64,000 bases of DNA, from assembly GCA_963751455.1 (NCBI GenBank), contig CAVVUN010000012.1, positions 288,001-352,000 of the forward strand. The letters are read 5' to 3'. This document shows positions 15,304-35,218 of the stretch, piece by piece. The stretch is from Nitrospirota bacterium (lineage in GTDB: Bacteria; Nitrospirota; UBA9217). A program made the position numbers and the translations under genes. The notes under the pieces were generated by a model. It ran no database searches and had not been told where the DNA came from. It worked only from the letters and a program-made list of their open reading frames with translations. How positions within the stretch are numbered: position 1 is the stretch's first letter; every line of letters starts with the position of its first letter.

Positions 15304-16404
15304 TTATGATTTGCTCATTTTACCGCCGAATATCTCCACAATTTTATTTACCAAAGCCGGCAGCGAGGGGTCGCGCGCGCCCATGATAAGAATACAGTCT
15401 TCAGGTTTTGCATCGAGTTTTAATCTGGTCAATAAGTCATCGCGGCTGGTGAGCGCTTGTGCATTGAATGCCGCGGGACCAAGGCCGTTTATGATATCTT
15501 CCGAGGAAATATTTTTTTGCGCCGTGCCTCCCGCATAATCCTAAAAACGGCATTTGAACACGGATGAACACGGTAACAGCGGATCAAAACAATGTGATAG
15601 AGCAAAAAGCCATCTCGCCTTTTGGGTGAATCCATTACTGTTCGTAACTTCCTATAAATCCGTGTTGATCAGATTTTATCCGTGTCCAACTGCTTTTTTC
15701 AGGATAATAGATCGGGAGGAGATAGAGTGAATCATTTGGCCGGAACGCGGTTCGAAAAGTTTCGATGTATTCGTCTTTCAAAAACCGTGTAGGGCCGAAG
15801 CCATGCGGCTGATATACGGCCAGGATGCGTCCGGAAAGGCCTCGGGCTGCCCGAACAACAGCCGCTATTTTTGCCGGATTATGGGCAAAGTCATCAACCA
15901 CATGCACGTTCGCTTTTGTTGCGGTGACGGAAAATCGCCGGGCCACACCCTCATAATTTTTTACCGCATGCGCAAGGGCAGACGGCTCACAAGCGAAATA
16001 CTCGCATACGCAGAGCGCAGCGCACAGGTTTTCAAGATTGTGCTCTCCGGGAAGCGGCAGATGATACTCAGTGCCGCTCCTGAATAATTTGACCAAAGTC
16101 GGGAGGAGTTGCTCCCGGTCCGGCCGCCACGAACCCGAACCGTTTCGGCCGAAGCGCACGGTTGCAGGAAGCGAAGCAAGGACCGGATCGTCGGCGTTGG
16201 AGGCCGTCCAGGAAGATTGCGAAGCCAGCGTTTTGAAGAGTTTCGCGATGTCCTCAATGCTTTTGTGGTCCTTGGAAACATTCAGGATGACGGCCGCTTG
16301 CGGACGATATTTGACCACGGTTCCATCGCTTTCGTCCGCCTCCACCACCAGGAGGTCGGACCCGCCGCTATAAGCGTTTCCGATAAGGCCCTCTTTTTCG
16401 AGCC
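15304..16404 (-). pseudogene. 5'-truncated, MITE-interrupted duplicate of the 3' part of the murC/mpl-like gene at 32952-34871
   Basis: Aligns by eye to 32952-33883 (VEADESD, DDFAHNP, YQPHGF, MGARDPSL); lacks 5' half; interrupted at 15540-15703. Confidence 0.92.
15540..15703. mobile_element. 164-bp MITE, CCT...AGG termini, 5-bp target duplication ATAAT
   Basis: Empty site visible in the intact paralog (ccgc-ATAAT-agatc at ~33183); here ATAAT flanks both ends. Confidence 0.93.
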
Positions 16405-16428
16405 GTCGATTGCGCTGATATTAATATT

Positions 16429-18564
16429 TCAACCGATTCCTGGAATCCGCAAGGCTCGGTAAACCCAGAGCGCTTCATGAACGAGTACGGCGCTTAACGT
16501 ATGTGAATCAGGTTTCACATCCTTTGGAACGGTGAAAGAGTACTCCATCAATTGATCCTTGCACGGACCGATTTGTTTAAAAACAATGCGATGACTTACT
16601 TTTTCAGTTAGGCGAATCGCAACAACCGGTGAGCTTTTTGTGGACCAGACAGTATCGTTACAATCATTCACTCGCAGACAAACAACTACTTTTGCCCCTG
16701 CTCGGAGTTCGGATGGCCCCTCAAGCGATAGACGATACGCATTTTCAACCCAAAATTCGATCGGTCCGCAGACCTCGCACTCTCGCTGGATAAGGAGATT
16801 GCCGAGAGACAAGAGATGAGTAGCGGTTTCCCTAACAGTATGACCTGGCAAACATTGTGCCTCTGCCAGACAGGAATGTGAATGTAAGCCGGCATCAGCG
16901 ATAGATCGCCATAAAGCACCCCGACCTTCCCCAATAAACAGCATTTCGCAAAACAGAGTAGCCGCCAGTTCGTCCCACTGCCGAAATCCGAACTGAAGCG
17001 GATTGAGAAGTCGGCCGAGCTCGGGGTGCCACAAAAGCGAACGTTGGCAGCTTCGCACTAAATTCAGTCCTGCTTGCGCTGTTTCACTTATTTCACGGCT
17101 GATCTCTGCCATTCCGGCAAGTAACTCCTGACCGCTATTCGAGCCACTCAATTCCTTAGCGTAATGACGACGAACTGCTCGCTCCACTATGTTTGCATAT
17201 CCCGTTCGATCCAAATAGTGTAGCAACATGCTTGCTAATTTCTCCAACTCGTGACCACAGTTTCTTAGTTTAATTTCTCCGGGCTCGGCACTCTCCGTTA
17301 TAATAACGGCGCCGGTCGAGCCTCCTTGAATTACCGTTTGATCTTTAAGGCCTATTGTAGCAGCTAGGGGAGTTCCGGCTAGTTCAGATGGAAGAGCGAA
17401 TAGCTTAACCTTGGTCGATTGTGAATGCCACTTAGCTTCTTTATTGCCTAAGAGTTGTATTGATGGAGCAGGTCCGCAAGCATCGCCGAAAAGGACGTAT
17501 GGTCTTCTGCCTGTTGCACTCTCCTGAAAATCGTTCAGAAGGCATGCTATCTGTCCAAGTCCGACATTGTCCATTGAAAGAGAGTGACCAAGGGTAAGAT
17601 AATATTCGCTCAGTTCTGAGTTGCACCTGGTGGCAAGAAACGCTGCGGGAAAACCTTCGGCTATTGCAATTACGCTGTTTAGATCCGATGGGTAGAGTTC
17701 TCCGCCGAGCGCAAATCCACCGCATGAATGCAGCAGCAGGTTTCGGGCACTTAAATCCCCGAAGCCAATCGAAGTACGCGTACCAGCCGGTGCGCGCTTG
17801 CATTTACGAGTACCCAAGCCACTACAACCGTTAATAGGCCGATTATCAAGTAATCTTTCCGAGCTTATGCCGGCCCCGCAGAGGACAAGATTGCCTAGCT
17901 TAGCATGCCCGAATGTGCCGTGCGCGAAGACACTTAAGACATTCCAACTAGATTCCCGAATCCAGCGTCGAGCCTCATCCTCCATCCAGAGTATTTCATT
18001 GCAGCCGCTGGAAGTCCATCGTGACATTTTTTCTCGATCGAAATCTATCTCAGCTGAGTCAGGCCAATGAGCGTATTTAGCCAAATAGATCTTGGCCAAT
18101 GAAAAACTTAGACCCTCACTGTCAATTGCAGTAATTATACTCCAGGGACGCCGAAAGTGGACTGCCAATTGTTCAACTTGTGCAAAAGGGAAGTCATCGC
18201 GTAAACCTACGAGAACTGCTGAATCCCACACCGCAGCTTCAACTGAAAGCCAATTTTGTACTTTGGCAACGGGACGCTCCAACAACTGGGCATAGAACCT
18301 GACGATGCCGCTTAGTGCATCGTTTATGAAAAAAATCGGATTTCTATCATTTGTTCTCTTTCTTGGAGCGTCTATTTCACCCTTTTCCACCTGTTCTGAA
18401 GCAATATACCATTTTAAAATAGACTCCCAACGTGCAGATCGACCATCTTTCGGTCGCAGCACCATGGGTCCTCTCGCCGTGCCCTTCTTGAGCTGCTCTT
18501 CGAACGCAGTATGTCTTTCAGTCCAAGTAACCTTGTTGCTCATAACTTTGTCTTTAGTCATCAC
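16429..18564 (-). CDS. 711-aa protein with probable clan CD (caspase/CHAT/gingipain C25-like) His-Cys peptidase domain
   Basis: Beta-strand-preceded VFAHG and LLLHSC motifs and later YVLFGD; the rest is unrecognised. Confidence 0.5.
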   Translation of the reverse strand: MMTKDKVMSNKVTWTERHTAFEEQLKKGTARGPMVLRPKDGRSARWESILKWYIASEQVEKGEIDAPRKRTNDRNPIFFINDALSGIVRFYAQLLERPVAKVQNWLSVEAAVWDSAVLVGLRDDFPFAQVEQLAVHFRRPWSIITAIDSEGLSFSLAKIYLAKYAHWPDSAEIDFDREKMSRWTSSGCNEILWMEDEARRWIRESSWNVLSVFAHGTFGHAKLGNLVLCGAGISSERLLDNRPINGCSGLGTRKCKRAPAGTRTSIGFGDLSARNLLLHSCGGFALGGELYPSDLNSVIAIAEGFPAAFLATRCNSELSEYYLTLGHSLSMDNVGLGQIACLLNDFQESATGRRPYVLFGDACGPAPSIQLLGNKEAKWHSQSTKVKLFALPSELAGTPLAATIGLKDQTVIQGGSTGAVIITESAEPGEIKLRNCGHELEKLASMLLHYLDRTGYANIVERAVRRHYAKELSGSNSGQELLAGMAEISREISETAQAGLNLVRSCQRSLLWHPELGRLLNPLQFGFRQWDELAATLFCEMLFIGEGRGALWRSIADAGLHSHSCLAEAQCLPGHTVRETATHLLSLGNLLIQRECEVCGPIEFWVENAYRLSLEGPSELRAGAKVVVCLRVNDCNDTVWSTKSSPVVAIRLTEKVSHRIVFKQIGPCKDQLMEYSFTVPKDVKPDSHTLSAVLVHEALWVYRALRIPGIG

Positions 18565-19492
18565 CCATCTCTCTATTTTTTACCAGATCGTTCCTTAACT
18601 CCAAAAGGTTTTCAACTTGCTTTTGGTCTTCGCGAGATAAGATAGGGATACGGGTCAGTTTCTCCAACTCTTCCTCTCGATCAAGCAGCCCGAAGCGTAT
18701 CCGCTCGGCTATGTAATCGATCAATATCCGGGGGGCGTGACCGCCGTTCCGCAGCAAAATGTTATAGATACCATAACTGGCCATCAAACAATCAGAATCA
18801 TAGGGTCCGACACCAGGGTCCTCCCAGGGCAGTTCAGCGATTGCACGCTCTATATCCCTCTTTGTAAGAGAATATGCCGCGACTACTCGAATGAAAGTCG
18901 GATCTTTCTGATCTATACAACTCCAGTTCTTGGGAGTATCACCTCCCGTAAAGATGGCTTTGGCGCCATAGCGTTGAGCAACAGTTCTGAAAACTGGAAG
19001 CTTCCACGCAGTCTTGCACGTTTGGCCACAGACTGAACTGCCTTGAATAATCATCTCCCGGAAGGCCTTGTAGGGATAGGAATGGATAAGCAGCCAATCA
19101 ACTTTTAGAAAATCGATAATAGAATTAATATTGGCTCTTGTCTTCACGTTTTTCATGCCTTGGTCCACGGTGAACGCCAGAACTTTGAGCCCTCTCTCAA
19201 CAAGCAGCTTCAGCGCTACCGCACTATCCTTACCGCCTGAAAACGCCAAAATAGCATCGTACTCCGCAGTCTTTGCCTCTTTTAGTGCCTCCTCGAATTC
19301 GCTCATGAGCACTTGAGGATCGATAGGCCTCTCGACGAGAGCAGCACACTGCAAACAGAGAAAGCGTCCCTTCGTTTCAACGAACTTTAATTTATTGTCC
19401 ATTCCCTCCCGGTAGATACAGATTTCACACATTCGACCGCCAGGCAGTGTTGCAGAAATAGTTCCGTTCAGCATTTTTGATTTAGACTCCAT
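18554..19492 (-). CDS. PP-loop (N-type ATP pyrophosphatase) protein, WbpG/WbuX-like amidotransferase architecture
   Basis: N-terminal CxxC...CxxC, AILAFSGGKDS, CxxxC, C-terminal IRFGLLDREE. Confidence 0.75.
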   Translation of the reverse strand: MESKSKMLNGTISATLPGGRMCEICIYREGMDNKLKFVETKGRFLCLQCAALVERPIDPQVLMSEFEEALKEAKTAEYDAILAFSGGKDSAVALKLLVERGLKVLAFTVDQGMKNVKTRANINSIIDFLKVDWLLIHSYPYKAFREMIIQGSSVCGQTCKTAWKLPVFRTVAQRYGAKAIFTGGDTPKNWSCIDQKDPTFIRVVAAYSLTKRDIERAIAELPWEDPGVGPYDSDCLMASYGIYNILLRNGGHAPRILIDYIAERIRFGLLDREEELEKLTRIPILSREDQKQVENLLELRNDLVKNREMGDD

Positions 19493-19520
19493 GACTTTTC
19501 AAGTTCAGAATTTGACTTCA

Positions 19521-21032
19521 TTAAATGCAGTAGGTTCTTAGTTCATCGAGAGCACGACGAGCTTCAATCCGATCATCGAAAGCGAAACGCCGGCCGCTCA
19601 CGAGCTGATAAGTTTCATGTCCCTTGCCGGCAATTAAAACCACCCCTTTTGATCCGGCCCGCATGATTCCCATCCGAATAGCAGCAGCGCGGTCAGTCTC
19701 AACTTCATACTTAAGATTGAGTTGAGACGTTGCTGATAGGTTTGCTTCACTCACTCCGGATAAAATTTCCTCTATTATTGCCCGGGGATCCTCGCACCTT
19801 GGATTATCAGATGTAATAATTACGTGATCGCTAAGATTACATGCGATTGCACCCATCAACGGTCGCTTACTGCGATCGCAGTCGCCTCCGCACCCAAAGA
19901 CGGTCACTAGTTTGCTATTTCCGGATAATGCCCGCAAGGAACCGCATACGTTTTCAAGTGCATCAGGCGTATGGGCATAATCAATAAAAACTCGCGGACC
20001 ATTGACTCCCTGCACCAGTACTCGTTCGAGCCTGCCTGGCACACCATGAAAAGTCGCTATGGCCTCCGCGGACGAATTTAGATCAACACCGAGAGCAAGT
20101 GTTGCGCTGACAGCTGCCATAATATTGTAAACGTTGTAAATGCCGGTCATAGGCGAGACGATGTGAACACTATTAAACCCTTCCGCATCAAGCTGGAACT
20201 TCAACTGCTCTAACGTCATCCCAAGTTTTGACGCCCTTATTGTGGCCCGCCTCTCAATTCCGTACGTCATGAAACGCGAGCTGACCCGCTCAACTAAATG
20301 CCGGCCCCAGAGATCATCTATGTTAATCACCGCCAAAGCTTTAGTCGGAAGCATTTGGAACAACCGTGCCTTTGCCTCGAAATAGGCATCCATGGTGCCG
20401 TGATAATTCAAGTGATCTCGAGTTAAATTTGTAAAAATACCGATTCCGAAGTGAAGGCCATCCACACGATGCTGGCAAAGTGAGTGGGAGGATACTTCAA
20501 TTGCCGCCGTGTTTTGTCCCGTAACACGCATAGCCTCCAGGCATGCATGAATCTCTATGGCTTCGGGAGTAGTGATGCCGCCGTAGAAGGTTTGATTTCC
20601 GACAACCCAATCAACGCTGCCGATCATGCCGCAGCCACGATTGACATGGTTGAGAATATGCCGAATAAGATAACCCGTTGTAGTTTTGCCATTAGTTCCG
20701 GTAATGCCGACAATATCCATCATTAAACTGGGATGGTTATAATAGGCTGAACAGAGGTGTCCAAGTGCTTGACGTGGATTGTTAGCGATAATATGGGGGA
20801 GTTTTGGAGAAAATCGTTTTTTCGCTAAAATTGCGACAGCTCCGTTCCTCACCGCTTGGGATATGGCTGCTAAATAATTTTTATTGTTTTCGTCAGTCGC
20901 AGTGAAAATGAAACCCGGTTCCACGCTACGGGAGTCCAGAGCTATACCGAGAATATCAACATTTGCCGAATTAGTGATGGTAATGTCTGGATAGGACGCG
21001 CTTAGGCGATTAATGAGCGTGTTGAAATTCAT
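19521..21032 (-). CDS. murE: MurE-like Mur ligase (island-borne paralog)
   Basis: DSRSV, GTNGKTT, NLTRDHL, DYAHTPD, FGCGGD, DNPR, AGKGHE; not in a dcw cluster. Confidence 0.88.
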   Translation of the reverse strand: MNFNTLINRLSASYPDITITNSANVDILGIALDSRSVEPGFIFTATDENNKNYLAAISQAVRNGAVAILAKKRFSPKLPHIIANNPRQALGHLCSAYYNHPSLMMDIVGITGTNGKTTTGYLIRHILNHVNRGCGMIGSVDWVVGNQTFYGGITTPEAIEIHACLEAMRVTGQNTAAIEVSSHSLCQHRVDGLHFGIGIFTNLTRDHLNYHGTMDAYFEAKARLFQMLPTKALAVINIDDLWGRHLVERVSSRFMTYGIERRATIRASKLGMTLEQLKFQLDAEGFNSVHIVSPMTGIYNVYNIMAAVSATLALGVDLNSSAEAIATFHGVPGRLERVLVQGVNGPRVFIDYAHTPDALENVCGSLRALSGNSKLVTVFGCGGDCDRSKRPLMGAIACNLSDHVIITSDNPRCEDPRAIIEEILSGVSEANLSATSQLNLKYEVETDRAAAIRMGIMRAGSKGVVLIAGKGHETYQLVSGRRFAFDDRIEARRALDELRTYCI

Positions 21033-21292
21033 GGTATCTGTGTTTTTCTATGCCGCCATTATTGTCGAAAGTTTAATTCAACATTTATCTACCACGCTGC
21101 CCTTCTGTTGACGAGTGCCGCGAAGAGTCTGAGCCAGGCTGAAAGGCTGCCCCTCGCCGGCATTTCTCTCCGCAAAGCTGTAGAATCTTCAACCAACCCA
21201 AAGCACTGGTTGAGGAGCCATAGCTGAGCAAAGTTCTGCCGAGAAAACCATGCTAATGAAGCGAGGGGCCAAAGTTGTTTTTTGCCGATGGA

Positions 21293-21505
21293 CTACCAGT
21301 TCATGATACCGCCACCCCGCACGAAACCTGCACGAGCCAAATCAGCACGAATATTCGCCAGTTTGGCTTTTGCTTCTTGAACTTTCGCCTTAGCTTCATG
21401 GAACTGAGCCAAGGCCTGAAAGTCCTTGGAAACTAAATTTTTGTGCTCCGTTCGGAGGCGGAGCTCCACAATACCACTGGTACTCACTTTCTTCTTTTCT
21501 GCCAT
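21293..21505 (-). CDS. Putative RiPP precursor peptide 2 (70 aa, ends LARAG-FVRGGGIMNW)
   Basis: AAGGAGG RBS; paralog of 21607-21810; located in an RRE/rSAM cluster. Confidence 0.8.
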   Translation of the reverse strand: MAEKKKVSTSGIVELRLRTEHKNLVSKDFQALAQFHEAKAKVQEAKAKLANIRADLARAGFVRGGGIMNW

Positions 21506-21606
21506 CTTCCTGTCCTCCTTTTTTAATTAAGATTCTCCAATAGACACTTCGCACCGTTTGCTGTCCAAATGTTCATTAAGCCATTAATGGCACTGGGCTT
21601 GGTGAT

Positions 21607-21810
21607 TTACCAGTTATCCGATACGTCGCCAAGCACTAAACCCGCACGAGCCAAGTCAGCACGAATATGCGCCAATTTGGCTTTTGCTTCTTGAACTTTC
21701 ACTTTAGCTTCATGGAACTGAGCCAAAGCCTGAAAGTCCTTGGAAACTAATTTTCTGTGCTCCGTACGAAGCTCCTCGATACCGCGAATACCTAATTTCT
21801 TTTCAGCCAT
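21607..21810 (-). CDS. Putative RiPP precursor peptide 1 (67 aa, ends LARAG-LVLGDVSDNW)
   Basis: AAGGAGG RBS; shares LVSKDFQALAQFHEAKxKVQEAKAKLAxIRADLARAG with peptide 2. Confidence 0.8.
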   Translation of the reverse strand: MAEKKLGIRGIEELRTEHRKLVSKDFQALAQFHEAKVKVQEAKAKLAHIRADLARAGLVLGDVSDNW

Positions 21811-21869
21811 TTTTTTCTCCTCCTTTCTTGAATTAAATTAAACACAAGAGATTTTGATCTCAGCAATCC

Positions 21870-23390
21870 CTATATATGATTACTAAATCGATTTGAATCG
21901 TTCAAAACAAAGTTCTTATGACCAACAGCCGCAGCTGAGGCGCCTGCCATCCTCCCAAAAAAAGCGCCAGATAACAGACCAGTTCCGGCTAAATAGTTAT
22001 GATTGAAAAGGCCTCCCACCATTTCTCCGCAAGCGAAAAGGCCGGAGATAGGTTTCTGATTTGAATCAAGCACCTGAGCCATCTCATTTATTTTTACACC
22101 TCCATAAGTAAAAGTGATACCACCAGTAACGGGATATGCAAAAAAAGGCGGATCCTCAAGCCGGCGCGCCCAATTAGATTTAGGTGGTTGAATACCCGCA
22201 GCCGTCAAACCATCCAATTGGGTCGGGTCGAACTCACCTTGGCGCTGAGCCCCGTTATATTGCTTAAGCACTTCACATGCCCTAGCTTGATTTATTGGCA
22301 ACATCTTAACGAGGGATCCCAAGGAATCAGCGAGGATTGGTTTCCCGGTCTTATAGCGTTTCTCCAGCAGCGGCACGGCATTCGCGTCAAATATCTGGTA
22401 GGCTATGCCATTGGGCTGGCTTAGGATGATTCGACCCATCTTTGCATACGTGAAAAACTGAAAGTCTTCTCCTTCGTCACAAAAGCGCTGGCCGAGGCGA
22501 TTCAGCATCACTCCAAAAGGATAGGAAAGCCGGTTGGACTTATCAGTCAATGAACGGGAGCCGAAAAATGAAGTGCCCGCGTCAATGGGTGTAGAATGAC
22601 AGTGCGTGAAATTACCGTATCGAAGCGCGTTTAAGTCAAAAGCCATGCGCAAACCATCTCCGGTATTATAGGCAGTGCCTCGAACTCTCGCTTGAGCCCA
22701 TTGCCTACCCAAATAGTGCGCACGCCAAGCAGCATTAGACTCAAACCCCCCACAGGCCAGTATAATAGCTTTAGCGGTTAATTGAGAATATCCTTTCGGG
22801 CTCCGGGCAAGAACACCCGTAACCCTCGACCGATTATCCCGGGTTAGCGATACTGCAGCTGTTTGATATAGCACCTCTATTCCTCGTTCAGCAGCAATGT
22901 TGAACCACATTCGTGATAGTCCTACGCCTCCATCGCGTACCTGAACCAAAGCTCCAGGCGACCATCCCACCTTATTTTTGTGGCAAATAGCGCTCAAGGA
23001 TACGGCCAATTCCATAGCTATGCCTTGGTTTACCAACCAGCGGACTGTGTCATAAGAGTGATTGACCAACAGCATGCTCAAATGTAAATCGATTTGACGA
23101 TGAGTAAGGCGCTGTAGATCCTCCCAAAATTGTTGAGCTGTATAAGATGTTATCTCCTCGAAAAAGCCAGGAACTTGACGTTCGGCATCAGGTAACAGTG
23201 GCCGTAGATCGTTTCTCGAATCGAAGGCGAAACGCAATAGCCCTCCGCTGAAGTAAGTATTTCCACCACGAAAATGTTCAGGTGCTTTCTCGAGAACAAT
23301 AACTCGCTTCGCGCCATTTTCGTGGGCGGATACGGCGGCAGCCATAGCGGCGTTCCCAGCGCCAACGATTATTACGTCAAAATCAGACAT
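21870..23390 (-). CDS. FAD-dependent oxidoreductase, TcuA/CobZ-like (succinate dehydrogenase/fumarate reductase flavoprotein superfamily)
   Basis: VIIVGAGNAA, EKAP..RGGNT, LACGGFESN, NTGDG, GITFTYGG, GLFACGE; no tcuB/tcuC nearby. Confidence 0.85.
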   Translation of the reverse strand: MSDFDVIIVGAGNAAMAAAVSAHENGAKRVIVLEKAPEHFRGGNTYFSGGLLRFAFDSRNDLRPLLPDAERQVPGFFEEITSYTAQQFWEDLQRLTHRQIDLHLSMLLVNHSYDTVRWLVNQGIAMELAVSLSAICHKNKVGWSPGALVQVRDGGVGLSRMWFNIAAERGIEVLYQTAAVSLTRDNRSRVTGVLARSPKGYSQLTAKAIILACGGFESNAAWRAHYLGRQWAQARVRGTAYNTGDGLRMAFDLNALRYGNFTHCHSTPIDAGTSFFGSRSLTDKSNRLSYPFGVMLNRLGQRFCDEGEDFQFFTYAKMGRIILSQPNGIAYQIFDANAVPLLEKRYKTGKPILADSLGSLVKMLPINQARACEVLKQYNGAQRQGEFDPTQLDGLTAAGIQPPKSNWARRLEDPPFFAYPVTGGITFTYGGVKINEMAQVLDSNQKPISGLFACGEMVGGLFNHNYLAGTGLLSGAFFGRMAGASAAAVGHKNFVLNDSNRFSNHI

Positions 23391-23469
23391 AAAACCTCTG
23401 TTAAAAACATCAAAGAACTATGAATAACAGCTAGTTGTCAATCAACTTCAACGGTTGCTAAAAATAAAT

Positions 23470-25164
23470 TTAGTCCCGCATCTTTCTAGGTTGAACGGTT
23501 GTATGGCCAGAAAATAACCATATTTCGCGTTCACGGGGCAGATTGTTGACATCAACATTAGCAGGAGTGTCTATAAATTTTTTTACATTTTCCCCTAAAT
23601 GCAAGGCGATCAATGAAGCCATATCCTCTTTCGACGGAACTGGTATCAGGATTTGTGCACCGAGAAGCTTCATCATGTCCATCGTTTTCGCATTGTTAAA
23701 GGCACAGGTATGTGCATCGTCATAGAGGCAGAGTAATACATCTACCGGCATAAGTGCAGAAATCTCATCGTGAGATAATGAACGTGTCAATCCGCCAATA
23801 TAACAAAACCGGAAGCCATCGAACTCGATGACTGCTATCGGAGATTGATAGACTCCTCCCGAAATCAAACTCTCGTCCCGGTTAATTAGCTGTATTGAGC
23901 AAAAGTCATAATTTATGATGTCGACGGCTCTCTTCCTGTTTACGTTAGAAGCGCCCAAGGGTGTTTGTAACTGATGTTTTTTCGACCAAATACCATCTCT
24001 GTCAAGCACTACCACATCTTCTTGCTGTTCAATTAGTCGAGAGCTTTTTCTGCGGGGGTCCAGAATGACCAGGCCTGGCTTCGATGCCGATTGAAGTTCA
24101 ATAAACCCATCACGACATCTAATACTGTACTTGCCGGCTGATCCTGAAACATAAGGCTTACGCGCCGATGAAACTGATAGCGGGCAGTACAAATCCGCCT
24201 CATCAGATCGTAGCCCCCAACCGACTGCACATGCTCTACAGCCTCCGAGACAATTAGAAAGGTGACCGCAGCTAGAGCAGGTATCAGGCACATTGAGAGT
24301 ACGCAATGCATTCATCCGCGCGCCATAAAACACTTCAGTAAGTCGATGAGTGACGAGATTGCCTAATGGCAATTTAATATAACCGCAAGGGACAAGGTTC
24401 CCCAGGGCATCAACGTGCAAATGCTTACTGAAGCAGCCTGGCTGAGTCGAAGGTGTCGTCCCCTGCAAAAACTCAAAACAGGATGAGCCAAAAGTGATCT
24501 GTCTGTATTTTGACATCGCAATGGCGCTCTTCACGACCTCGGCAACCTGCTCCGCCGAGGGACAAAGCTCATGACTTGCACGGCCCGACGGCACTACGGG
24601 GCGGATTTTAAATATCGCAGCGCCTGCATTGTGGGCGGAATCAGCGACCTGCTTCATTTCTGCGATATTGACTCGTGTAAGCGTCATGCGTACGAGGACC
24701 TGGAATCCCATACTTGAAGCCGTCTCAATATTGGCCAGCGTACGTGCAAATGCTCCCGGTGTGTTCCGATGCCAATCATGAGTAGGTCCAAATCCGTCTA
24801 GGCTCACGTGCATCGTAAAAATGCCTGCATCGAGCATACGGTCCAATTCTTCAGAATTCAAATTATAGGCGTTCGTGAAAAGTATTGATGCGATGCCGGC
24901 GTCAATCAGATGCCTTCCAATAGCGCATACAAGATTTAATTCTAAGGTAGGTTCTCCGCCGGTGATGGCCACTTCTTTCGTATCGAGCTGATGAAGATCC
25001 TCAATAAGCTTTGACCTAAAGCGGGAGAAGTTAAAAACAGCACCTTTTTTCGGCGCCGGGCGCGCACAATGCCGGCATTTCATGTTGCACTGGTCGTTTA
25101 TGCGAATGCGGAGACTCTGGAGTCGCGCATATGGAACGGTCGGAAGCATGTTAGGTTTCAACAC
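23470..25164 (-). CDS. Radical SAM/SPASM protein with C-terminal degenerate metallo-beta-lactamase-like domain
   Basis: CNMKCRHC, TGGEP, SLDG; SPASM C..VPC..CSSC...CLGGCRAC..YCP; C-terminal FDGFRFCYIGGL..VDVLL..ILIPV. Confidence 0.85.
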   Translation of the reverse strand: MLKPNMLPTVPYARLQSLRIRINDQCNMKCRHCARPAPKKGAVFNFSRFRSKLIEDLHQLDTKEVAITGGEPTLELNLVCAIGRHLIDAGIASILFTNAYNLNSEELDRMLDAGIFTMHVSLDGFGPTHDWHRNTPGAFARTLANIETASSMGFQVLVRMTLTRVNIAEMKQVADSAHNAGAAIFKIRPVVPSGRASHELCPSAEQVAEVVKSAIAMSKYRQITFGSSCFEFLQGTTPSTQPGCFSKHLHVDALGNLVPCGYIKLPLGNLVTHRLTEVFYGARMNALRTLNVPDTCSSCGHLSNCLGGCRACAVGWGLRSDEADLYCPLSVSSARKPYVSGSAGKYSIRCRDGFIELQSASKPGLVILDPRRKSSRLIEQQEDVVVLDRDGIWSKKHQLQTPLGASNVNRKRAVDIINYDFCSIQLINRDESLISGGVYQSPIAVIEFDGFRFCYIGGLTRSLSHDEISALMPVDVLLCLYDDAHTCAFNNAKTMDMMKLLGAQILIPVPSKEDMASLIALHLGENVKKFIDTPANVDVNNLPREREIWLFSGHTTVQPRKMRD

Positions 25165-25292
25165 TGATTGCTCCTTTTGATCTTGTCATCACTAGTTGCA
25201 ATATCTCCGCGGCTGGTCACTGTGTATTCGCGCAAAAATTTTAAGCTTTTAATTGGTCTCGCCTAAGATTCTGCAATTCGCCCGCGTCATAA

Positions 25293-26333
25293 TCAAAATT
25301 CCAGAGAGTTTGGCTTAATATTCTGACAAGATGGTACGCTTACCGTGAGGTCATTGAAAAAATTGAAACCCAGCGCCCTGCATGCCGAACAAAAATATTG
25401 ATCGTCACAATTTCCACATTTTCCTTGATATTTTCCAGGCGTTTGTTTTCGTAGAAGTGCCAAAAGTTCAGATGACCAAATTTTTTTCAAATCGTCATTA
25501 ACAAGATTTCCCAAGGCGGATGCCAAAACAGGTTTAAAATGCTCGCAAGGTCGAACTGTGCCATCAGGGGATATTGATAATTTGAACCTACCCGCAGAAC
25601 AAAGCTTCAGATGATCATTTTCCGGACTGCGACTGCAACTGCTGTATCGTAATGGTAACTTGCTAACTGTTGTCTTCGCGCGTTGCCACAAAGCGAATGC
25701 CGCCGACTCATCTTGTGCAAATATATGCTGTCCAAATTTAAACGGTACATAATATTGCATGATAACTCCGCGCAGTCGGTCTGGCAAAGCAGATATAAAC
25801 TCGGCTGGTTCAGGGCATCCTGCTAAAAGTGACCAGACAACCATCACATTAAGACCAGCATCCATTGCATGTATCATAGCCGAGCAAGTCTCATCGAAGC
25901 TGCCTGCCCGCGTTTGCTTGTCGTGGTAAACGCGGTTGCCAAATAATTCAAATATAATATTTCCAACGCCGGTTTTTCCCAATTTAAACCAAAAATCCGC
26001 TTCAGGCATTGGGCCACCTGTAATAAGGTCGCAATCGAGGTCATCTTTAGTTGACTCCTCCAGTATCTCTGGGAGCCACGGGAAAGCATTACAGCCCGGT
26101 GCGATAAATAACACATGCCGAATATTGTGCTCCGACAGAACCAGTAAAACCTTTCGTATGATTCTTTGCTGTTCTTTTGGCTCATAACCTTGGAAAAAGT
26201 AGGGGCAATGTTTGCATTCAAACGCACATTTCCAAGCGAGCTGGATATGGGCCTCAATTGCAACGCTCGGTAGTATGGATAAAAAATCTTTAATCCTCTG
26301 ATCGACTTGTTGATTCATTTTATCAACCAGCAA
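25293..26333 (-). CDS. Radical SAM/SPASM protein (divergent core)
   Basis: CAFECKHC; no clear GGEP; SPASM CSAG..VRPC..CGNC...CSACRA..SC. Confidence 0.8.
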   Translation of the reverse strand: MLVDKMNQQVDQRIKDFLSILPSVAIEAHIQLAWKCAFECKHCPYFFQGYEPKEQQRIIRKVLLVLSEHNIRHVLFIAPGCNAFPWLPEILEESTKDDLDCDLITGGPMPEADFWFKLGKTGVGNIIFELFGNRVYHDKQTRAGSFDETCSAMIHAMDAGLNVMVVWSLLAGCPEPAEFISALPDRLRGVIMQYYVPFKFGQHIFAQDESAAFALWQRAKTTVSKLPLRYSSCSRSPENDHLKLCSAGRFKLSISPDGTVRPCEHFKPVLASALGNLVNDDLKKIWSSELLALLRKQTPGKYQGKCGNCDDQYFCSACRALGFNFFNDLTVSVPSCQNIKPNSLEF

Positions 26334-27427
26334 TAAGGGTCGGGCGCGTATAAATCTCCTGAACTAATGTAAGCCATGGCACGACATCCGCCACCGCATT
26401 GCATAAAGCTGCTGCAATTGCAGCAACGTGGATCGATTCCATCTCTAGCCCTCAGAGCATCCATAACTGGATGCCGCGACAAGATATCATCTATATGGTT
26501 AGATGCCAGTGTACCCAGCGTCAAGGGGAAAACCGGGCATGGATAAGCATGTCCTTGAGCTGTATAATGCAACATATAACCTGCTCCGCACTGAGCTCGT
26601 TCGTCGATGGATCTTTCTGCGAAAAGAGCTGCACAGTGTGGCAGCTCCAAGTGAATACCTATATGAAAAGTAGAAATCTTTTTGATATCTAAAATAAAAC
26701 GCTTTAATGATTCTCCGGACAAAATAGGACCAGACAGGCCGGCTTGTCTGCCCAGAGGCATAAGTGGGAATAGGATTAAGGTGTTGACACCCAGTTCATC
26801 TAGCATGTGAATCATTTGCTGGATATCACTTTGATTATGGCGAGAAACGGCTGTTTGAACAGCCACTCTGACGCCTTTTCTAACAAGGCGCTCGATCGCA
26901 GACCAGGCTTTAATGAACGTGCCCGGGCCTCTCACAGCCTCATGAGCCTTGGATAGCCCGTCCAACGAGACCTTAATACCATAAATATTCATAGAAATGA
27001 GTTGCTCGATTCGTTCATCTGAAAGGAGAATTCCATTGGTTGTTAAACCCCAGAACATTTGCTTACGAGTTGCATAAGTGCCGAACGACTTGACTATATT
27101 CCACTCAAGTAGCGGCTCTCCACCGGTCAAGTCGAGAATAGGTGTGCGTTCACCCATCTGGTTAAAAAGTTCTGCTACCATCAATTCTGACCAAGAGGAA
27201 GTCGAACTCGCAGAGCTGTCGACGGCGCAATGGGTACACGAAAGATTGCATCGTGCAGTTATTTGAACGCTAATGGAAGTAAGGGGCGCTGATTCGAATG
27301 CCATTGTCGGAGAACTCCTGTAATGCTGCGATGAATTTGGGGGATAACCAACTATTGGGTATCCCCCATGTGGTAATGCAGCTAGCGTTTTAGAGACAAT
27401 GGGCAATGTTGACCATACAACCCGCAA
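26315..27427 (-). CDS. Radical SAM/SPASM protein
   Basis: CNLSCTHC, TGGEPL, TTNG, VSLDG; SPASM CGAG..YPC..CCNC...CGGGCRA..DPYC; true start may be downstream (MAFESAP). Confidence 0.88.
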   Translation of the reverse strand: MRVVWSTLPIVSKTLAALPHGGYPIVGYPPNSSQHYRSSPTMAFESAPLTSISVQITARCNLSCTHCAVDSSASSTSSWSELMVAELFNQMGERTPILDLTGGEPLLEWNIVKSFGTYATRKQMFWGLTTNGILLSDERIEQLISMNIYGIKVSLDGLSKAHEAVRGPGTFIKAWSAIERLVRKGVRVAVQTAVSRHNQSDIQQMIHMLDELGVNTLILFPLMPLGRQAGLSGPILSGESLKRFILDIKKISTFHIGIHLELPHCAALFAERSIDERAQCGAGYMLHYTAQGHAYPCPVFPLTLGTLASNHIDDILSRHPVMDALRARDGIDPRCCNCSSFMQCGGGCRAMAYISSGDLYAPDPYCWLIK

Positions 27428-27494
27428 ATCGAACTTTTTTCAACTTAAGCTTAAATTTGCGCATATAGCACCTCCTTTCTCCGTTTGAGTTCTC

Positions 27495-28319
27495 CTAAAG
27501 AGGCCCTGGGCATAATTTATCCCTGCCTGTGCGTCTTCTGCGGGCTCGGCATCCCCCGCCACAATCCTTAATAGCACACTTTAAACATTCATCGGGAACC
27601 CGAGACCAGGTGAGAAGCCTCTCATCATTCCAAATTTCGCTCAAGCTTTTGTTGTCTAAGGAGCCCAGGCAAAGGCGTGAGCGTCGACATGGACGAACTT
27701 CAGCCTGCTCCGAAACAAACAGGGCAAATCGACCAGCTGGGCATTTACTTCCGACATTTACAAAATCAGGGAAAAAACGCTGCATTAATACCAGATCTGA
27801 TATGACAGGTATCGAGCAATTGTCGGAAAATTCAGATACTGCATAAAGAAATTGTCGGTAAGTATCAACCGAAGCGTGTGGAAGCTCCTCGATGTTCACG
27901 GCTGCCACAGATCTTGCTGACAGCCATTCGATCCAAACCTCTTGATTCGCCTTAGGAGGCAAGTAACCAACAATGACAATACTAAAGCCAAAATCCAGGA
28001 GCATGGCGATTTTTTCCTTGAGACTTTTATCGGGCGAAAGACTTGTATCAACGCTGACTCGCAATGTACATGGAGCAAGCCGGCGCCAGGATGGACGAGG
28101 TTGCAAATCCTCGTATGCGAGGGTCAACACAAGTTCATAACCATGTATTACACTTAAATCCAAAGCCGTTTCAATTGGACCCTTGCATACCATGTTAATA
28201 ATGGAAATTCCTCCAGCAAGTATCATTGACAAGCGTTCGGTCCACAGCGTGTGGTCGGGCTGCAAAGGCAAATCTACCTCGGCAATCATAGGCGCTATCA
28301 GGCGTTCGCTTTCGGACAT
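27495..28319 (-). CDS. SPASM-domain protein lacking the radical SAM CxxxCxxC motif
   Basis: C-terminal CPAG..VRPC..CLKC...CGGGCRA..DKLC; only isolated Cys in N-terminal 170 aa. Confidence 0.75.
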   Translation of the reverse strand: MSESERLIAPMIAEVDLPLQPDHTLWTERLSMILAGGISIINMVCKGPIETALDLSVIHGYELVLTLAYEDLQPRPSWRRLAPCTLRVSVDTSLSPDKSLKEKIAMLLDFGFSIVIVGYLPPKANQEVWIEWLSARSVAAVNIEELPHASVDTYRQFLYAVSEFSDNCSIPVISDLVLMQRFFPDFVNVGSKCPAGRFALFVSEQAEVRPCRRSRLCLGSLDNKSLSEIWNDERLLTWSRVPDECLKCAIKDCGGGCRARRRRTGRDKLCPGPL

Positions 28320-29269
28320 AAAGGATCGTTACCCCAAATTTCCTTTGTGGCGCTGTAGGCTGCTGCTCGGCAACCTCTGCATATCGTGCAAAAATCGCAA
28401 GTATAGCACTTGGCTTCAGATGGAACGGTGCGCAGCGATGCCATTAATTCAGAAGTTTGCCATGCGGCGGTAAATCCTACATCGAAAACATTACGATCAG
28501 AAATACGCAGTTTCGCACAGGGTAGCATAGAGCCATCACTGGAGATTACAACCGCCCATCTGCCGGCGGAACAGCCACTCCAGATATCGTTGGGAATATC
28601 TTTGATATATTTTTTTGGAGTTAATAAATTAAGCAAAGGTTCTTCACAAGATAAATTCTCATGCGATTGCATCCATCCCGAGATCGTCTTCAAGACATGA
28701 TCATACTCGACTACTCCGAGAGAAAAATCATAATCAAGCTTGCCGGGTAAGGCGCAAATTCTCTGGAAACCTGCAGGAACTCCAAGACGAACGAACAGAT
28801 TTAAGAATTTGTCTATTTTAGCGATATTTCGCGACGAAAGTGTCACGAGAAAAGTAATTGGAAGGCCTGCATCTCGCAAGCGCAAGACTTGTTCACACAC
28901 TGCTTGCGCCCTTTCATCCTCTGTTGGAAGAGCATGAAGACTGAGTTGAATAAAAGAAATTTTGTTGTGAAGACGGCTAAAGAAATTTTCAGGAATTCGG
29001 AGTCCATTTGTCAAAAGACCTGGTCGCCAGCCAAACTGATTAGCTTTCCCGACCAGTTCCTCAATATGCGGATATTGCAAACACTCGCCCCCTGTAAAAA
29101 CGATTCGCTCTACTCCCGCCTTTTTAGCCTCAGCCAGAAGTTGAGTGCCTTCAAACAGCGGCATATCTGTAATATGGCGTTCAGAGCCTAAATAACAAAA
29201 GGGGCAATCCAAGTCACATCGTGTAGTTACCTCCAGCTCGAGTAAACTTGGCGCTTGCAAATTCAGCAT
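28298..29269 (-). CDS. Radical SAM/SPASM protein
   Basis: CDLDCPFC, TGGEC, LTNG; SPASM CSAG..LPC..CYTC...CRGCRA..DPLC. Confidence 0.88.
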   Translation of the reverse strand: MLNLQAPSLLELEVTTRCDLDCPFCYLGSERHITDMPLFEGTQLLAEAKKAGVERIVFTGGECLQYPHIEELVGKANQFGWRPGLLTNGLRIPENFFSRLHNKISFIQLSLHALPTEDERAQAVCEQVLRLRDAGLPITFLVTLSSRNIAKIDKFLNLFVRLGVPAGFQRICALPGKLDYDFSLGVVEYDHVLKTISGWMQSHENLSCEEPLLNLLTPKKYIKDIPNDIWSGCSAGRWAVVISSDGSMLPCAKLRISDRNVFDVGFTAAWQTSELMASLRTVPSEAKCYTCDFCTICRGCRAAAYSATKEIWGNDPLCPKANA

Positions 29270-29270
29270 T

Positions 29271-29594
29271 TTACAATCCCTTTTCGATCCGGATTAGTTT
29301 GTTATCATTCATTTCCTGGAGAAAACCAGATAACTCTTCTATTAACTCCTTTCTTTCTGGAATTTCAACGTTACCGATTTTTTCTAAATTATAAGTAATA
29401 TCGTCGCAAATTTTGCCGAACGTTGTCGGTTTATCCAATAGACGCCATACCATTGCTTCGAACTCGCCAAATTCGTAGAAGCCGTGAAAATCCGGTCGTT
29501 CTCCTTTGTATCTTGGGAAAACCAGTATCCTCCCATCCTCAGTATCTCGCCACTGATGGCTCTCTAGTCTATACACTAACGTTGAGTCATCCAT
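29271..29594 (-). CDS. PqqD-family stand-alone RiPP recognition element (RRE)
   Basis: 107 aa; three strands then helices with MVWRLLDKPTTFGKICDDI...Y...ELSGFLQEMNDNKLI pattern; directly upstream of rSAM genes; AGGAGG RBS. Confidence 0.8.
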   Translation of the reverse strand: MDDSTLVYRLESHQWRDTEDGRILVFPRYKGERPDFHGFYEFGEFEAMVWRLLDKPTTFGKICDDITYNLEKIGNVEIPERKELIEELSGFLQEMNDNKLIRIEKGL

Positions 29595-29671
29595 TTTACC
29601 TCCTGCTGAACCTAGTGAATTAGCCCAAAGTTCGGAATCACCTCGATAATAAAGTTTAAAAAGGGAGACTA

Positions 29672-32317
29672 TTACTTACTAAATATAATATTCGAAACAT
29701 CGATAACATCTTCCTTCAACGCAGTGTTAGATAGCAGCTCCCATGATGTGCTCCTTATGGCTGCCTTCAAATCACTCGCAATTGGCTCTATAATGTTTAT
29801 TATATTTGGGTTGGCATGGATGACTATACTCTCAATGCTTCGCCAACTTGGGAGCTGATGAGCCGCCTTCGCCTTATTGACCGCAGAATACACGGCCTGA
29901 GCTACATCAAAACTACTGTTCTTGTCAGGCGGAGAAATCCCCTTGAAATCCGTGTCGTTGGGCCAAGGTGCAATTGAAATACTCTTAATTCCAGTTTCCC
30001 CTGCAAATTCCCAAGACCAAACTTCCTCGCAGATATAGGGAATAAACGGTGCAAACATCTTGATTAATGTTTTAAGACCGAGACGCTGAGCGGCTATAGA
30101 CGACCCTTGATCTTCTGATTTAATACCATCTCCGCCCCATGTTCTCTTTTTGCTTAACTCAAGATAACTATCTGTGAAAGAATGCCAGAAGAAACTTTCA
30201 AGGGTGGAAAGGGCACTGCAGAAATTATATTCGTTTAATTGTTCAGTTACCGTTCGTACAGCTTTTCTGAGATGATCAATGAATGCCCGGTCTAATTCAC
30301 AAGATATGCTGTTTCCAGGTCCCTTTTGTGAAAGCACGAATTTTGAGGCATTATATATTTTTACAACAAGTCGGTTGCCTATTTTTACGATATTCTCATC
30401 ATATGCAGTATCAACTCCAAGTCGCGCATTCCCTGCCCAATAACGGAGGGCATCGGAGGAATACTTTTCAAGAAGATCGGTCGGCACAATAACATTACCT
30501 TTACTCTTGGACATTTTTTTTCTGTCTGGATCAAGAACCCATCCTGAAATGTTAATATTTTTCCAAGGTATTATATTTTCATGCAGCAGAGATTTCACTA
30601 TTGTGTAAAAAGCCCACGTTCTTATAATTTCATGACTTTGTGGCCGCAAATCCATAGGAAATAACTTACTGTGCCGATCTTCGTCTACTAACCATCGAGA
30701 TGCGATTTGAGGAGTCAATGAACTCGTGAACCAGGTATCAAAAACATCGGCTTCTGCAACAAACCCATTTGCTATTCCTCTCTGCCCTTCAGAATAGCCA
30801 GAGGGACAGGTTACTGCCGGGTCAACTGGAAGTTGATCTTCAGCGGCAATTATTGGCTTTGCGTAGTCTGGAATTCCATTATTATCGATAGGATACCATA
30901 CCGGGAAAGGGACGCCGAAATATCTTTGACGGCTGATGCACCAGTCCATATTTAAATTTTGGGTCCAATCCCTATATCTATTAAGCATAAAACTCGGATA
31001 CCAGTTGATTTCCTCCCCCTTTTCCAAAAGTTGTGCTTTCTTATCAAGTAGACGTACGAACCATTGACGTGTTGTTATGTATTCAAGAGGATGATCCCCT
31101 TTCTCGTAGTACCTGACAAAGTGTTTTAATGATCTCTTCGCGATTAAGGGGGGGGCATTTCCGACTGCAGCGCCATTTGGCCGTCTTAACATTTCAGCAA
31201 TTATTTCTCGAGCTTTCCGCACTGGCTTGCCGGCAAGTTCTGAATAAAAAGTATTTGCTAAACTCGGATTTTGACTATGCCAACCCTCATGGCCAAAGCT
31301 GATGTTTGCGAATCTCCCATCTCCTGAAATAATCTGCCTTAAAGGCAGATTTTCTTCACGCCACCATTGAACATCGTTTTGATCTCCGAATGTACAGACC
31401 ATAAGGATGCCGGTGCCTTTTTCAGGATTCACCATTTTACTAGGAAAGCATCGAACTTCTGAAAAAAATAAGGGAGTAATGGCTTTTTCCCCGACTAGGT
31501 GCTTATACCTTGGGTCGTCCGGATGAAATGTAACTCCAACGCAGGCCGGTAGAAGCTCGGGGCGGGTAGTCGATATGGTGAAACCAGCATCTGATTCGGC
31601 TAGACCAAAACGAATATCGTGAAAAACGCCTTCAACTTCTCGATCTTCAACTTCTGCTTGAGCAATTGCAGTTTGAAAGTCAATATCCCACATGGTGGGC
31701 CCTTCCGAACTATACAGGTGGCCCTTTCTCAGTAGGTCCAAAAAACTTACTTGCGCAATAGTTCTACAAAGCTTATCAATGGTTGAGTATTCCTGATGCC
31801 AATCCACAGACAATCCGATTCTTTGCCACAAACTTTTGAATACTTCTTCATCTTCTTTTGTCAGTTTAACGCAAAGATCTAAAAAATTAGATCGTGATAT
31901 AATCTGCGGTTTTTTCTTCCTATCTTCCGAGTCCGCCTGTTTTATGTTCAAATGCTCTTTATACGGCTCATTAGGATCGCATCGGACATGAAAATAATTT
32001 TGAACCCTTCTCTCTGTTGGAAGGCCATTGTCGTCCCATCCCATTGGATAAAATATATTTTTCCCGACCATTCTTTGATATCGAACGATGATATCAGTAT
32101 GCGTGTAGCTAAATATATGACCGATATGAAGAGAACCTGAAACTGTTGGTGGCGGTGTATCGATTGCAAATGTTTCGGCACGTTTTTTCGAGGAATCGTA
32201 TTTGAATATACCAAGCTCATCCCATAGCGCTTGATATTTTTTTTCAGCTGCTCTTGAATCGAAATGTTTTGGTAAGGTACTCGCATCAAATGAATTTCTA
32301 TCGTTTTTAATTATCAT
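29672..32317 (-). CDS. valS: Valyl-tRNA synthetase, type 2 (archaeal/actinobacterial-like), island-borne
   Basis: DTPPPTVSGSLHIGH, GWDDNGLPTER, WCISRQRYFG, DTWFTSS, RPQSHEIIRTW, KMSKS; no long C-terminal coiled coil. Confidence 0.93.
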   Translation of the reverse strand: MIIKNDRNSFDASTLPKHFDSRAAEKKYQALWDELGIFKYDSSKKRAETFAIDTPPPTVSGSLHIGHIFSYTHTDIIVRYQRMVGKNIFYPMGWDDNGLPTERRVQNYFHVRCDPNEPYKEHLNIKQADSEDRKKKPQIISRSNFLDLCVKLTKEDEEVFKSLWQRIGLSVDWHQEYSTIDKLCRTIAQVSFLDLLRKGHLYSSEGPTMWDIDFQTAIAQAEVEDREVEGVFHDIRFGLAESDAGFTISTTRPELLPACVGVTFHPDDPRYKHLVGEKAITPLFFSEVRCFPSKMVNPEKGTGILMVCTFGDQNDVQWWREENLPLRQIISGDGRFANISFGHEGWHSQNPSLANTFYSELAGKPVRKAREIIAEMLRRPNGAAVGNAPPLIAKRSLKHFVRYYEKGDHPLEYITTRQWFVRLLDKKAQLLEKGEEINWYPSFMLNRYRDWTQNLNMDWCISRQRYFGVPFPVWYPIDNNGIPDYAKPIIAAEDQLPVDPAVTCPSGYSEGQRGIANGFVAEADVFDTWFTSSLTPQIASRWLVDEDRHSKLFPMDLRPQSHEIIRTWAFYTIVKSLLHENIIPWKNINISGWVLDPDRKKMSKSKGNVIVPTDLLEKYSSDALRYWAGNARLGVDTAYDENIVKIGNRLVVKIYNASKFVLSQKGPGNSISCELDRAFIDHLRKAVRTVTEQLNEYNFCSALSTLESFFWHSFTDSYLELSKKRTWGGDGIKSEDQGSSIAAQRLGLKTLIKMFAPFIPYICEEVWSWEFAGETGIKSISIAPWPNDTDFKGISPPDKNSSFDVAQAVYSAVNKAKAAHQLPSWRSIESIVIHANPNIINIIEPIASDLKAAIRSTSWELLSNTALKEDVIDVSNIIFSK

Positions 32318-32529
32318 CTTTCAAAATCCTAAAACAACCCAAAGTAATAAATTTGCATTTGGCTGACAGTTAATTTTCAATTAAGCTTACATAGCTTAAA
32401 ATTAAACATAATATGTAATTGAAAAATTGCGGATAGTAAGGAAAGAAGGAGTAGCCGAACCTAGTATCACTCTATCTAAAAAGGACTCTATTTAGATAAG
32501 GCAGCGTTCTGCGGATATCATTTAAGGGC

Positions 32530-32559
32530 ATTATAGTGATCTACACACTTGTTTGTCAA
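32530..32559 (-). promoter_or_regulatory. Consensus sigma70 promoter driving the island
   Basis: Minus strand TTGACA (32559-32554) - 18 bp - TATAAT (32535-32530), about 210 bp upstream of valS. Confidence 0.8.
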
Positions 32560-32773
32560 GCGTTTATTTGCGGTGTTCGCGGGTCGCAAACATGCTGATC
32601 TCGCCGGTATATCCCTAGCGGGAGGACTAGGTTCCCCGGCTTTGACGATATTTCCATTTACCCTGCGGATGGACCACTATGCAGAGGCATCTGTGAGAGA
32701 ACTACGGGCTCGAGGTATCGCTAACGCTCGCTTCTTCTCAGAGATCGCTGCTCTTACCTAAGAAATCATCTTG

Positions 32774-32946: not shown

Positions 32947-32951
32947 GACTG

Positions 32952-34871: not shown

Positions 34872-34926
34872 AAGAAACTGCTGCTTTATCCTTTGTAAAA
34901 GTTTATTTCGAACGCTGTCCGGTTAT

Positions 34927-35090: not shown

Positions 35091-35218
35091 GTTATAGATG
35101 CCTGGCACTAGTCTCCTTCGCAAAATACTGTATTTTAAAGAAAACGACAAGAGAAAAAAGAAGAGCTGCAGCGTTGTCAGCCTTGCAGGTTGAATGGATT
35201 CGGAGGCGGAATAAAAAA

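Follow-up and report, generated by a model that had tools for sequence, protein, structure and literature searches.

Why does a genome that holds a complete dcw cluster with an intact murE of its own carry another murE, in the middle of an operon of putative precursor peptides and radical SAM enzymes? The gene in question (19521..21032, minus strand) lies in the window, i.e. the whole stretch of 64,000 nucleotides of a Nitrospirota bacterium that was analysed. A sequence-only reading of this stretch had proposed that the enzyme ligates DAP or Lys to the modified peptide, with a muropeptide-like or wall-linked product as one possibility, or, alternatively, that it is a second copy conferring resistance.

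The enzyme and its operon

The reading frame is intact (503 codons, zero internal stops), and its 503-aa product scores 509 with NCBIfam NF001126 (curated cut-off 373), 478 with NF001124 (cut-off 476) and 461 with TIGR01085 (cut-off 257), staying under cut-off for NF001123 and for the Lys-type NF010628. Its AlphaFold model (pLDDT 94.9) matches solved MurE structures with TM scores of 0.85-0.89. By profile, fold and phylogeny the protein is a member of the MurE family which lacks one feature, the Arg389 of Escherichia coli; this residue is not essential for membership, because the MurE of T. maritima lacks an Arg there. The DNPR and GGDCD motifs that had been read from the sequence are borne out at residues 409-412 and 382-386, respectively, and C385 aligns with E. 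coli Arg389 (1e8c numbering). Borne out, too, is the claim of an extra MurE outside the dcw cluster: the host's complete cluster, with an intact murE 40% identical to the island protein, is on a separate contig (G000:C15). Among the matches listed, none of 40 relatives has a second MurE-grade match. The host assembly has frameshifts elsewhere, though an assembly error is an unlikely source of GGDCD, for the separately assembled database copy P0001 carries the identical GGDCD and loop; the alignment shows the two proteins to differ at residue 203.

The island spans about 16.5 kb of low GC content (window 16404-32952), and its genes form a same-strand run from 32317 to 16429, with intergenic gaps of -22 to 260 bp. 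A sigma-70 consensus promoter (32530..32559, minus strand) points into it; it is the only 12/12 site of the 40 sigma-70 sites seen, 28.0 +/- 4.7 being expected by chance. All the genes that follow are on the minus strand. Nearest to the promoter is a second valyl-tRNA synthetase of the alt_ValS type (29672..32317; NF000540, 1062 bits against a cut-off of 900; HIGH and KMSKS present), which could be a resistance gene or a supply of Val-tRNA. The host's valS (G000:C3:167518-170121) and leuS (G000:C2:141141-144285) are in frameshifted pieces, probably through sequencing indels; if the break in valS were real, the island synthetase would be the sole intact copy.

There follow a probable PqqD-type RiPP recognition element (29271..29594; a weak match, E 0.0018, far under cut-off) and five SPASM proteins, four of which have the CxxxCxxC motif: three radical SAM/SPASM proteins (28298..29269, 26315..27427 and 25293..26333), a SPASM protein whose sequence lacks CxxxCxxC (27495..28319, a pseudo-radical-SAM), and a fusion of radical SAM/SPASM and metallo-beta-lactamase-fold domains (23470..25164). 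A TcuA-like FAD dehydrogenase (21870..23390; NF006130, 516 bits against a cut-off of 369) is next to the two putative precursor peptides, B (21607..21810; 67 aa) and A (21293..21505; 70 aa), which are 74% identical; both have a strong Shine-Dalgarno sequence, a C-terminal Asn-Trp, and no Glu in their last ten residues. On the other side of murE, starting 28 bp past its stop, is the gene of a PP-loop protein of the adenine nucleotide alpha-hydrolase kind, which has Cys pairs and a weak likeness to WbuX (18554..19492), and the run ends with a 711-aa C25/gingipain-like protein of an unnamed family (16429..18564), so assigned from its Atlas features together with a weak fold match. Gingipain K is the only fold match of this protein past 400 columns, at E 2.5e-4 and a TM score of 0.26; the family has 237 representatives, and H215, H220 and C281 are invariant in the 56 aligned members.

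The murE gene appears to lie mid-operon, on a common strand with the putative precursors, the recognition element and the maturases, and behind one perfect promoter. It had been described as directly downstream of the precursors, which is not quite so: its start is 260 bp past the second peptide gene. No terminator-like site was called in this gap, whose predicted structure does not exceed that of shuffles (z -0.30), and no strong Shine-Dalgarno sequence precedes murE. Rfam gives no match in window 14000-36000, and no integrase lies within the island or close to it. Taken as a whole, the island matches no described system, and may merit more interest than the MurE alone.

Origin, insertion site and relatives of the island

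Of 7,999 scored proteins, the closest to the island MurE is P0002 (53% identity), followed by P0003 and P0004 (42-46% for the next relatives). P0002 sits between ftsI and murF (locus L006) in a Planctomycetaceae bacterium MAG, where no other murE was found. The island MurE is matched in 27 of 30 genomes of one class of Planctomycetota (that of genome G041), and at the 24 loci of this class that were examined murE is always beside murF and in 22 cases beside ftsI as well. In a 90-row tree, made by a quick method with SH-aLRT supports and no bootstrap, the island MurE belongs to a 5-row clade with P0002-P0004 (support 98), nested in a 27-row clade of the same Planctomycetota class (support 95), and the 21 murE of the host phylum form a separate group (support 96). 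An AU test on a 30-row subset rejects the topology in which the island MurE is forced together with nine host-phylum murE (p 2e-5). The comparison with the host dcw murE that the sequence-only reading had called for thus sets the two genes apart: the island MurE does not group with the host gene as a host-lineage paralog would, and duplication within the host is ruled out by the tree and the AU test.

Tree and AU test together identify the gene as a xenolog of the Planctomycetota housekeeping dcw murE rather than a host duplicate. Its capture from a Planctomycetota dcw cluster into the island is likely, this direction of transfer being suggested by the dcw context in which its relatives sit. 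The end branch of the island MurE is long, at 0.79 against 0.26 and 0.36 for two sisters. Its GC3 of 0.46 falls within the range of the island genes (0.36-0.51), as against 0.68 for the host dcw murE and 0.73 for the closest relative; nearby host genes are mostly at 0.5-0.7. A passenger that brought dcw remnants along was considered, and no trace of ftsI or murF flanks the island gene.

On either side of the island stands a copy of the 3' end of a host gene, ykuD-murC, about 940 bp of which are duplicated in direct orientation. The upstream copy is the 3' part of the intact gene (32952..34871, minus strand), a fusion of an ElsL-like ykuD with murC/mpl; the second copy (15304..16404, minus strand) is truncated and aligns over 701 bp at 97.7% and 236 bp at 89.0%. 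This displaced murC fragment is split by a 173-bp repeat (15535-15707), the other copy of which (34923-35095) is 98.8% identical; with an inverted copy nearby and many genome-wide matches, the repeat is MITE- or REP-like. Between the two murC 3' copies (15304-16404 and 32952-33883) mismatches gather towards either end and are few in between, a pattern suggesting that a copy came from a related strain or species and underwent conversion later. The fusion joins an ElsL/YkuD-like carboxypeptidase to a MurC/Mpl-like ligase, is additional to the dcw murC, and is likely a peptidoglycan-recycling enzyme.

The ykuD-murC gene occurs in 55 of 63 other genomes of the host family (56/64 with the host), and the C25-like marker of the island in none of 400 other host-phylum genomes, those 63 included (2-4 candidates scored per genome). 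From the duplicated flanks we infer that the island integrated by recombination at a core gene. Because ykuD-murC is core and is duplicated at the flanks, the cell-wall setting is read as the insertion site, and the neighbourhood is probably a landing site without functional meaning. A functional link of the island to its ykuD-murC and dacA neighbours was accordingly set aside, the former being core and the C25-like marker missing from the family; dacA beside ykuD-murC has no match in 14 relatives with flanks of up to 1.5 kb. Of the cell-wall locus that had been pointed out, then, the adjacency to YkuD-MurC stands, in the form of a duplicated flank, and the functional meaning does not, insertion being its best explanation.

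Searches of genomes, the protein database and metagenomes with the peptides and the C25-like protein found no true homologous cluster, and the island MurE is a single occurrence in one genome. Peptide B has peptide A as its only relative in the genome contigs and the protein database, and the C25-like alignments in metagenomes contain no homologous cluster. Weak matches to the C25-like profile number 0 in the 400 host-phylum genomes, 1 in 401 Planctomycetota genomes, and 0, 0 and 1 in three more sets of 301, 351 and 251 genomes, with 2-4 candidates per genome being scored in every set; five single genomes have none. MurE is absent from six loci around C25-like relatives (four of six plasmid matches and two weak genome matches). 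The four plasmid loci are Streptomyces clusters with small NRPS, three of them with deazaguanine genes (L119-L122). Standing there beside stand-alone NRPS and queD, queE, folE and queC, the 711-aa family may form or cleave amides in unstudied peptidyl-nucleoside pathways.

Around relatives of the PP-loop protein, MurE is found at 0 of 80 loci (of 309 relatives; many of the loci are shorter than 5 kb) and radical SAM proteins at 3; one relative, 63% identical, is on a 1.7-kb contig. PqqD-type multi-radical-SAM/SPASM cassettes share with the island a PqqD-like protein, several SPASM proteins, a pseudo-SAM, a PP-loop protein and small peptide genes; the island SPASM enzymes, all five of them, fall far below the cut-offs of the GeoRSP, SynChlorMet, ACGX and mycofactocin models, and the island peptides are without relatives. 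At L168 (9905-16332) the order is PP-loop, pseudo-SAM/SPASM, radical SAM, PqqD-like, radical SAM, then methionyl-tRNA synthetase, without MurE; no precursor was identified in this cassette. L217 (5617-15819) is a candidate peptide cluster, in which a 36-aa Glu/Lys-rich ORF ending in Cys-Gly-Asp is followed by two radical SAM genes, a PP-loop gene and more enzymes. Since the related cassettes examined have no MurE, it would be a one-off addition and no standard cassette part. Absence of MurE from homologous clusters had been named as grounds against the ligase idea; none truly homologous was found, and its absence from the distant cassettes leans that way.

The plasmid collection holds 28 murE records; of the three opened, two are stand-alone, with GGDRD and DNPR intact, and one is in a dcw cluster. 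One of the stand-alone genes (L145, 11926-13410) comes from Streptomyces plasmids, of whose four records (100-177 kb) one was opened; the other (L146, 9944-11425) is flanked by IS4 elements on a conjugative plasmid of Bacillus mycoides. Genes of the alt_ValS type are also on plasmids (L148-L150) of Burkholderia glumae, Variovorax and Streptomyces, the last adjoining a radical SAM gene and an arginine-deiminase-family gene.

Kept and changed residues

The island MurE was compared with 221 other MurEs, a highly redundant set of which 118 come from the protein database and 103 from loci. It agrees with them at 105 of the 117 columns that are at least 85% conserved, and its E48, Y53, S139, N209 and C385 are found in none of them. 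At columns at least 98% conserved it has four private changes, as against zero in 207 of the 221; only one Thermotogae MurE ties with it. The site of Arg389 is Arg in 220 of the 221 and Cys385 in the island copy. In the G-x4-G loop of domain 1 (uridine loop), which presumably corresponds to the E. coli HQA45 loop framed by the two glycines, it has G48E and G53Y, the glycines being present in 219 and 212 of the others. Judged from the codons, R385C, D209N and G48E would each be a single C-to-T or G-to-A step.

What is kept comprises the ATP loop TGTxGKT, E179, H207, the carbamyl-lysine position K221 and DYAH (D351, H354); the pocket for the D-centre of DAP (D409-R412, with G469 and E473 equivalent to G464 and E468); and most contacts to UDP-MurNAc-dipeptide, namely S34, T154, T155, S181, Q187, R189 and H207. 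The initial description of full MurE motifs hence holds for the ATP core and DNPR, but G48E, G53Y, T139S and D209N break conserved columns, the latter two being at columns that are invariant in the other sequences. According to excerpts of PMC9434261, Arg389 contacts the L-centre carboxylate of meso-DAP, D413, N414, G464 and E468 the D-centre, and R416 both centres, UDP-MurNAc being bound by S28, HQA45, NTT158, S184 and QxR192; an ATP loop, a carbamylated lysine and an acyl-phosphate mechanism are described for Mur ligases in excerpts of PMC3829189, and an excerpt of PMC3681970 has some UDP-MurNAc contacts made via main-chain atoms, which may tolerate substitution. The literature excerpts listed contain no published role for the D209 or T139 position.

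The meso-DAP MurE of E. coli (1e8c) and M. tuberculosis (2wtz) have in common with the island protein the three-domain fold (TM 0.86-0.89), DNPR and the G464/E468 equivalents; unlike them, the island copy has Cys at Arg389, replaced loop glycines, D209N and T139S, and is outside dcw in a genome with an intact murE. Its dcw relatives P0002-P0004 begin at the same position and have a comparable insertion in domain 3, but read GGDRD (P0002, P0004) or GGNRD (P0003) and have both loop glycines. The MurE of T. maritima (4bub, an L,D-lysine ligase) resembles it in lacking Arg at the Arg389 site, where it has Ser, and in having Arg at motif position 4; it differs in being a housekeeping enzyme with DDPR and the first loop glycine kept, about 33% identical. 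The separate places of the two in the tree indicate that the loss at the Arg389 site is convergent.

At sites where its sisters agree, the island MurE has changes at 62 of the 142 variable positions, at 6 of the 41 with moderate conservation and at 6 of the 81 with high conservation; for P0002, in the same analysis, the figures are 18/98, 1/36 and 0/75. The steepness of the gradient and the open frame therefore point to lasting constraint, and indicate that selection continued on the island gene after its split from the sisters. Its excess over P0002 amounts to about 6-7 points in each conserved class. Changes are in excess in domain 1 (25/53 vs 49/211, p 0.001), with a similar ratio in P0002 (7/35 vs 12/174), and a scan for clustering along the protein is not significant (p 0.21). 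The mean BLOSUM score of private changes is 0.0, compared with 0.68 and 0.91 in the sisters and -0.35 under simulated neutrality; by estimate, some 35 neutral replacements should be accompanied by about 1.2 stops (0.034 per replacement) plus indels. A new job and a recent relaxation are inseparable from sequence alone.

What the enzyme may do

The preferred reading, to which a probability of about 0.4 is given, is that the island MurE is a cluster-dedicated ATP-dependent amide ligase, joining a diamino acid to the island product instead of the cell-wall precursor. From the residue map we infer the steps that lie beyond it. By established MurE chemistry, a carboxylate would be activated by ATP as an acyl phosphate and then attacked by an amine. 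The carboxylate might be that of the radical-SAM-modified peptide, at its C-terminal Trp or an Asp, or else that of a small piece cut from the peptide by the gingipain-like protein. The amine might be that of meso-DAP or the side-chain amine of D-lysine, through which T. maritima MurE joins D-Lys; the D-amino-acid head would rest in the DNPR pocket, with Arg389 unneeded. On this proposal, the changed uridine loop would reflect the loss of UDP-MurNAc as a substrate, and the loss of Arg389 would admit amine donors that have no carboxylate at an L-centre, D-lysine for example.

Speaking for a dedicated ligase are the foreign origin of the extra copy (supports 98 and 95; AU p 2e-5), the constraint gradient, the island-like GC3 and the lack of ftsI or murF remnants; its mid-operon position behind one perfect promoter, 28 bp before the PP-loop gene; and four private changes at columns at least 98% conserved, alongside an intact ATP core and D-centre pocket. 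Excerpts of PMC9434261 report that T. maritima MurE, with Ser at the Arg389 site, is active with both L- and D-Lys. The same excerpts, however, have this enzyme also adding meso-DAP in vitro, so that R385C alone is compatible with normal activity. Further points against the dedicated ligase are the single occurrence without a homologous cluster, the distant cassettes without MurE (0/80, L168 and the six C25-like loci), the retention of most UDP-MurNAc-dipeptide contacts, the even 6-7-point excess over P0002, which is the pattern of general relaxation, the similar domain-1 ratio in P0002 and the non-significant clustering scan (p 0.21), the lack of Glu in the last ten residues of the peptides, and that of a strong Shine-Dalgarno sequence before murE. 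A predicted MurE-peptide B complex scores 0.01 and is uninformative either way. The initial proposal finds partial support: an extra, non-host MurE in a peptide operon, with altered substrate contacts and an intact ATP core, fits a changed job, and ligation to the peptide, a muropeptide-like or wall-linked product and resistance are putative.

Rather doubtful is the more specific proposal of a peptidoglycan MurE recruited as a ligase for RiPP tailoring, whose meso-DAP or epsilon-D-Lys cap would make the product mimic a wall fragment and enter cells or wall via recycling, carrying a warhead against valyl-tRNA synthetase.

A decaying passenger is a rather unlikely rival reading: the gene would have been housekeeping murE in some unsampled species of the Planctomycetota class with a lower GC content, would have been picked up along with the island, and would be redundant in its new host and recently gathering neutral changes, at invariant sites as well. 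Its class relatives are indeed dcw genes (beside murF in 24/24, ftsI in 22/24), P0002 being the only murE found in its genome, and the roughly uniform excess across conservation classes, the BLOSUM mean midway between sisters and neutral, the single transitions behind R385C, D209N and G48E, and the related cassettes without MurE all fit neutral change. The frame, on the other hand, has zero stops or frameshifts where about 1.2 stops plus indels are estimated, and the gene has an untouched ATP core and a clean mid-operon place without dcw remnants.

Slightly less likely again is self-resistance, by which the enzyme would still make UDP-MurNAc-tripeptide but be insensitive to an inhibitor or DAP mimic produced by the island, in parallel with the second ValRS. 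Resistance typically shows itself as an additional, horizontally gained version of an essential gene placed within a biosynthetic cluster, and the island does contain a foreign extra copy of such a gene. DNPR, G469, E473 and most dipeptide contacts are kept, and stand-alone extra murE genes travel on plasmids; the in vitro activity of T. maritima MurE, as given in the excerpts of PMC9434261, makes loss of the Arg compatible with DAP addition. Yet the two plasmid copies keep GGDRD and DNPR, whereas the island copy alters four near-invariant columns plus G53 and has bulky residues at two uridine-loop glycines. Two unrelated targets for one product would also be unusual.

Improbable, lastly, is a non-catalytic or partly catalytic binder or scaffold for ATP, diamino acid or product, for although the repurposed plant MurE PAP11 resembles the island protein in its Ser at the Arg389 site (8w9z) and lost G-x4-G loop (8r5o), and moss MurE2 keeps DNPR with preliminary data for no ligase activity (excerpt of PMC9434261), PAP11 is part of the plastid RNA polymerase, an unrelated context, with long terminal extensions that the island MurE lacks, and the latter keeps the ATP loop, E179, H207, K221, D351 and H354.

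Searches of the open-licence full-text literature returned no paper that links Mur ligases to RiPPs and radical SAM enzymes, ValRS to radical SAM enzymes and precursor peptides, or C25 peptidases to biosynthetic clusters, and none on Mur ligases and natural-product amide bonds or on a second, horizontally acquired murE; the papers listed for MurE and self-resistance are mostly on mureidomycin or are reviews. The island MurE is genuine and unusual, a variant form of a known enzyme seen in a single case, and the peptide island around it is undescribed. Were it a decaying passenger, the gene would be ordinary and the interest would be left in the island only. Under the rival readings, too, it offers a natural test of Arg389, of the uridine-loop glycines and of the DHLD-motif Asp. 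If the dedicated-ligase reading is true, the enzymes available for RiPP tailoring would come to include a Mur ligase, amidating a peptide with a diamino acid, and this would be a clear recruitment of a cell-wall enzyme into specialised metabolism, with the family of its housekeeping ancestor available for comparison; if the RiPP-cap reading is true as well, the island would hold a new RiPP chemistry at an early stage of its evolution from a housekeeping gene.
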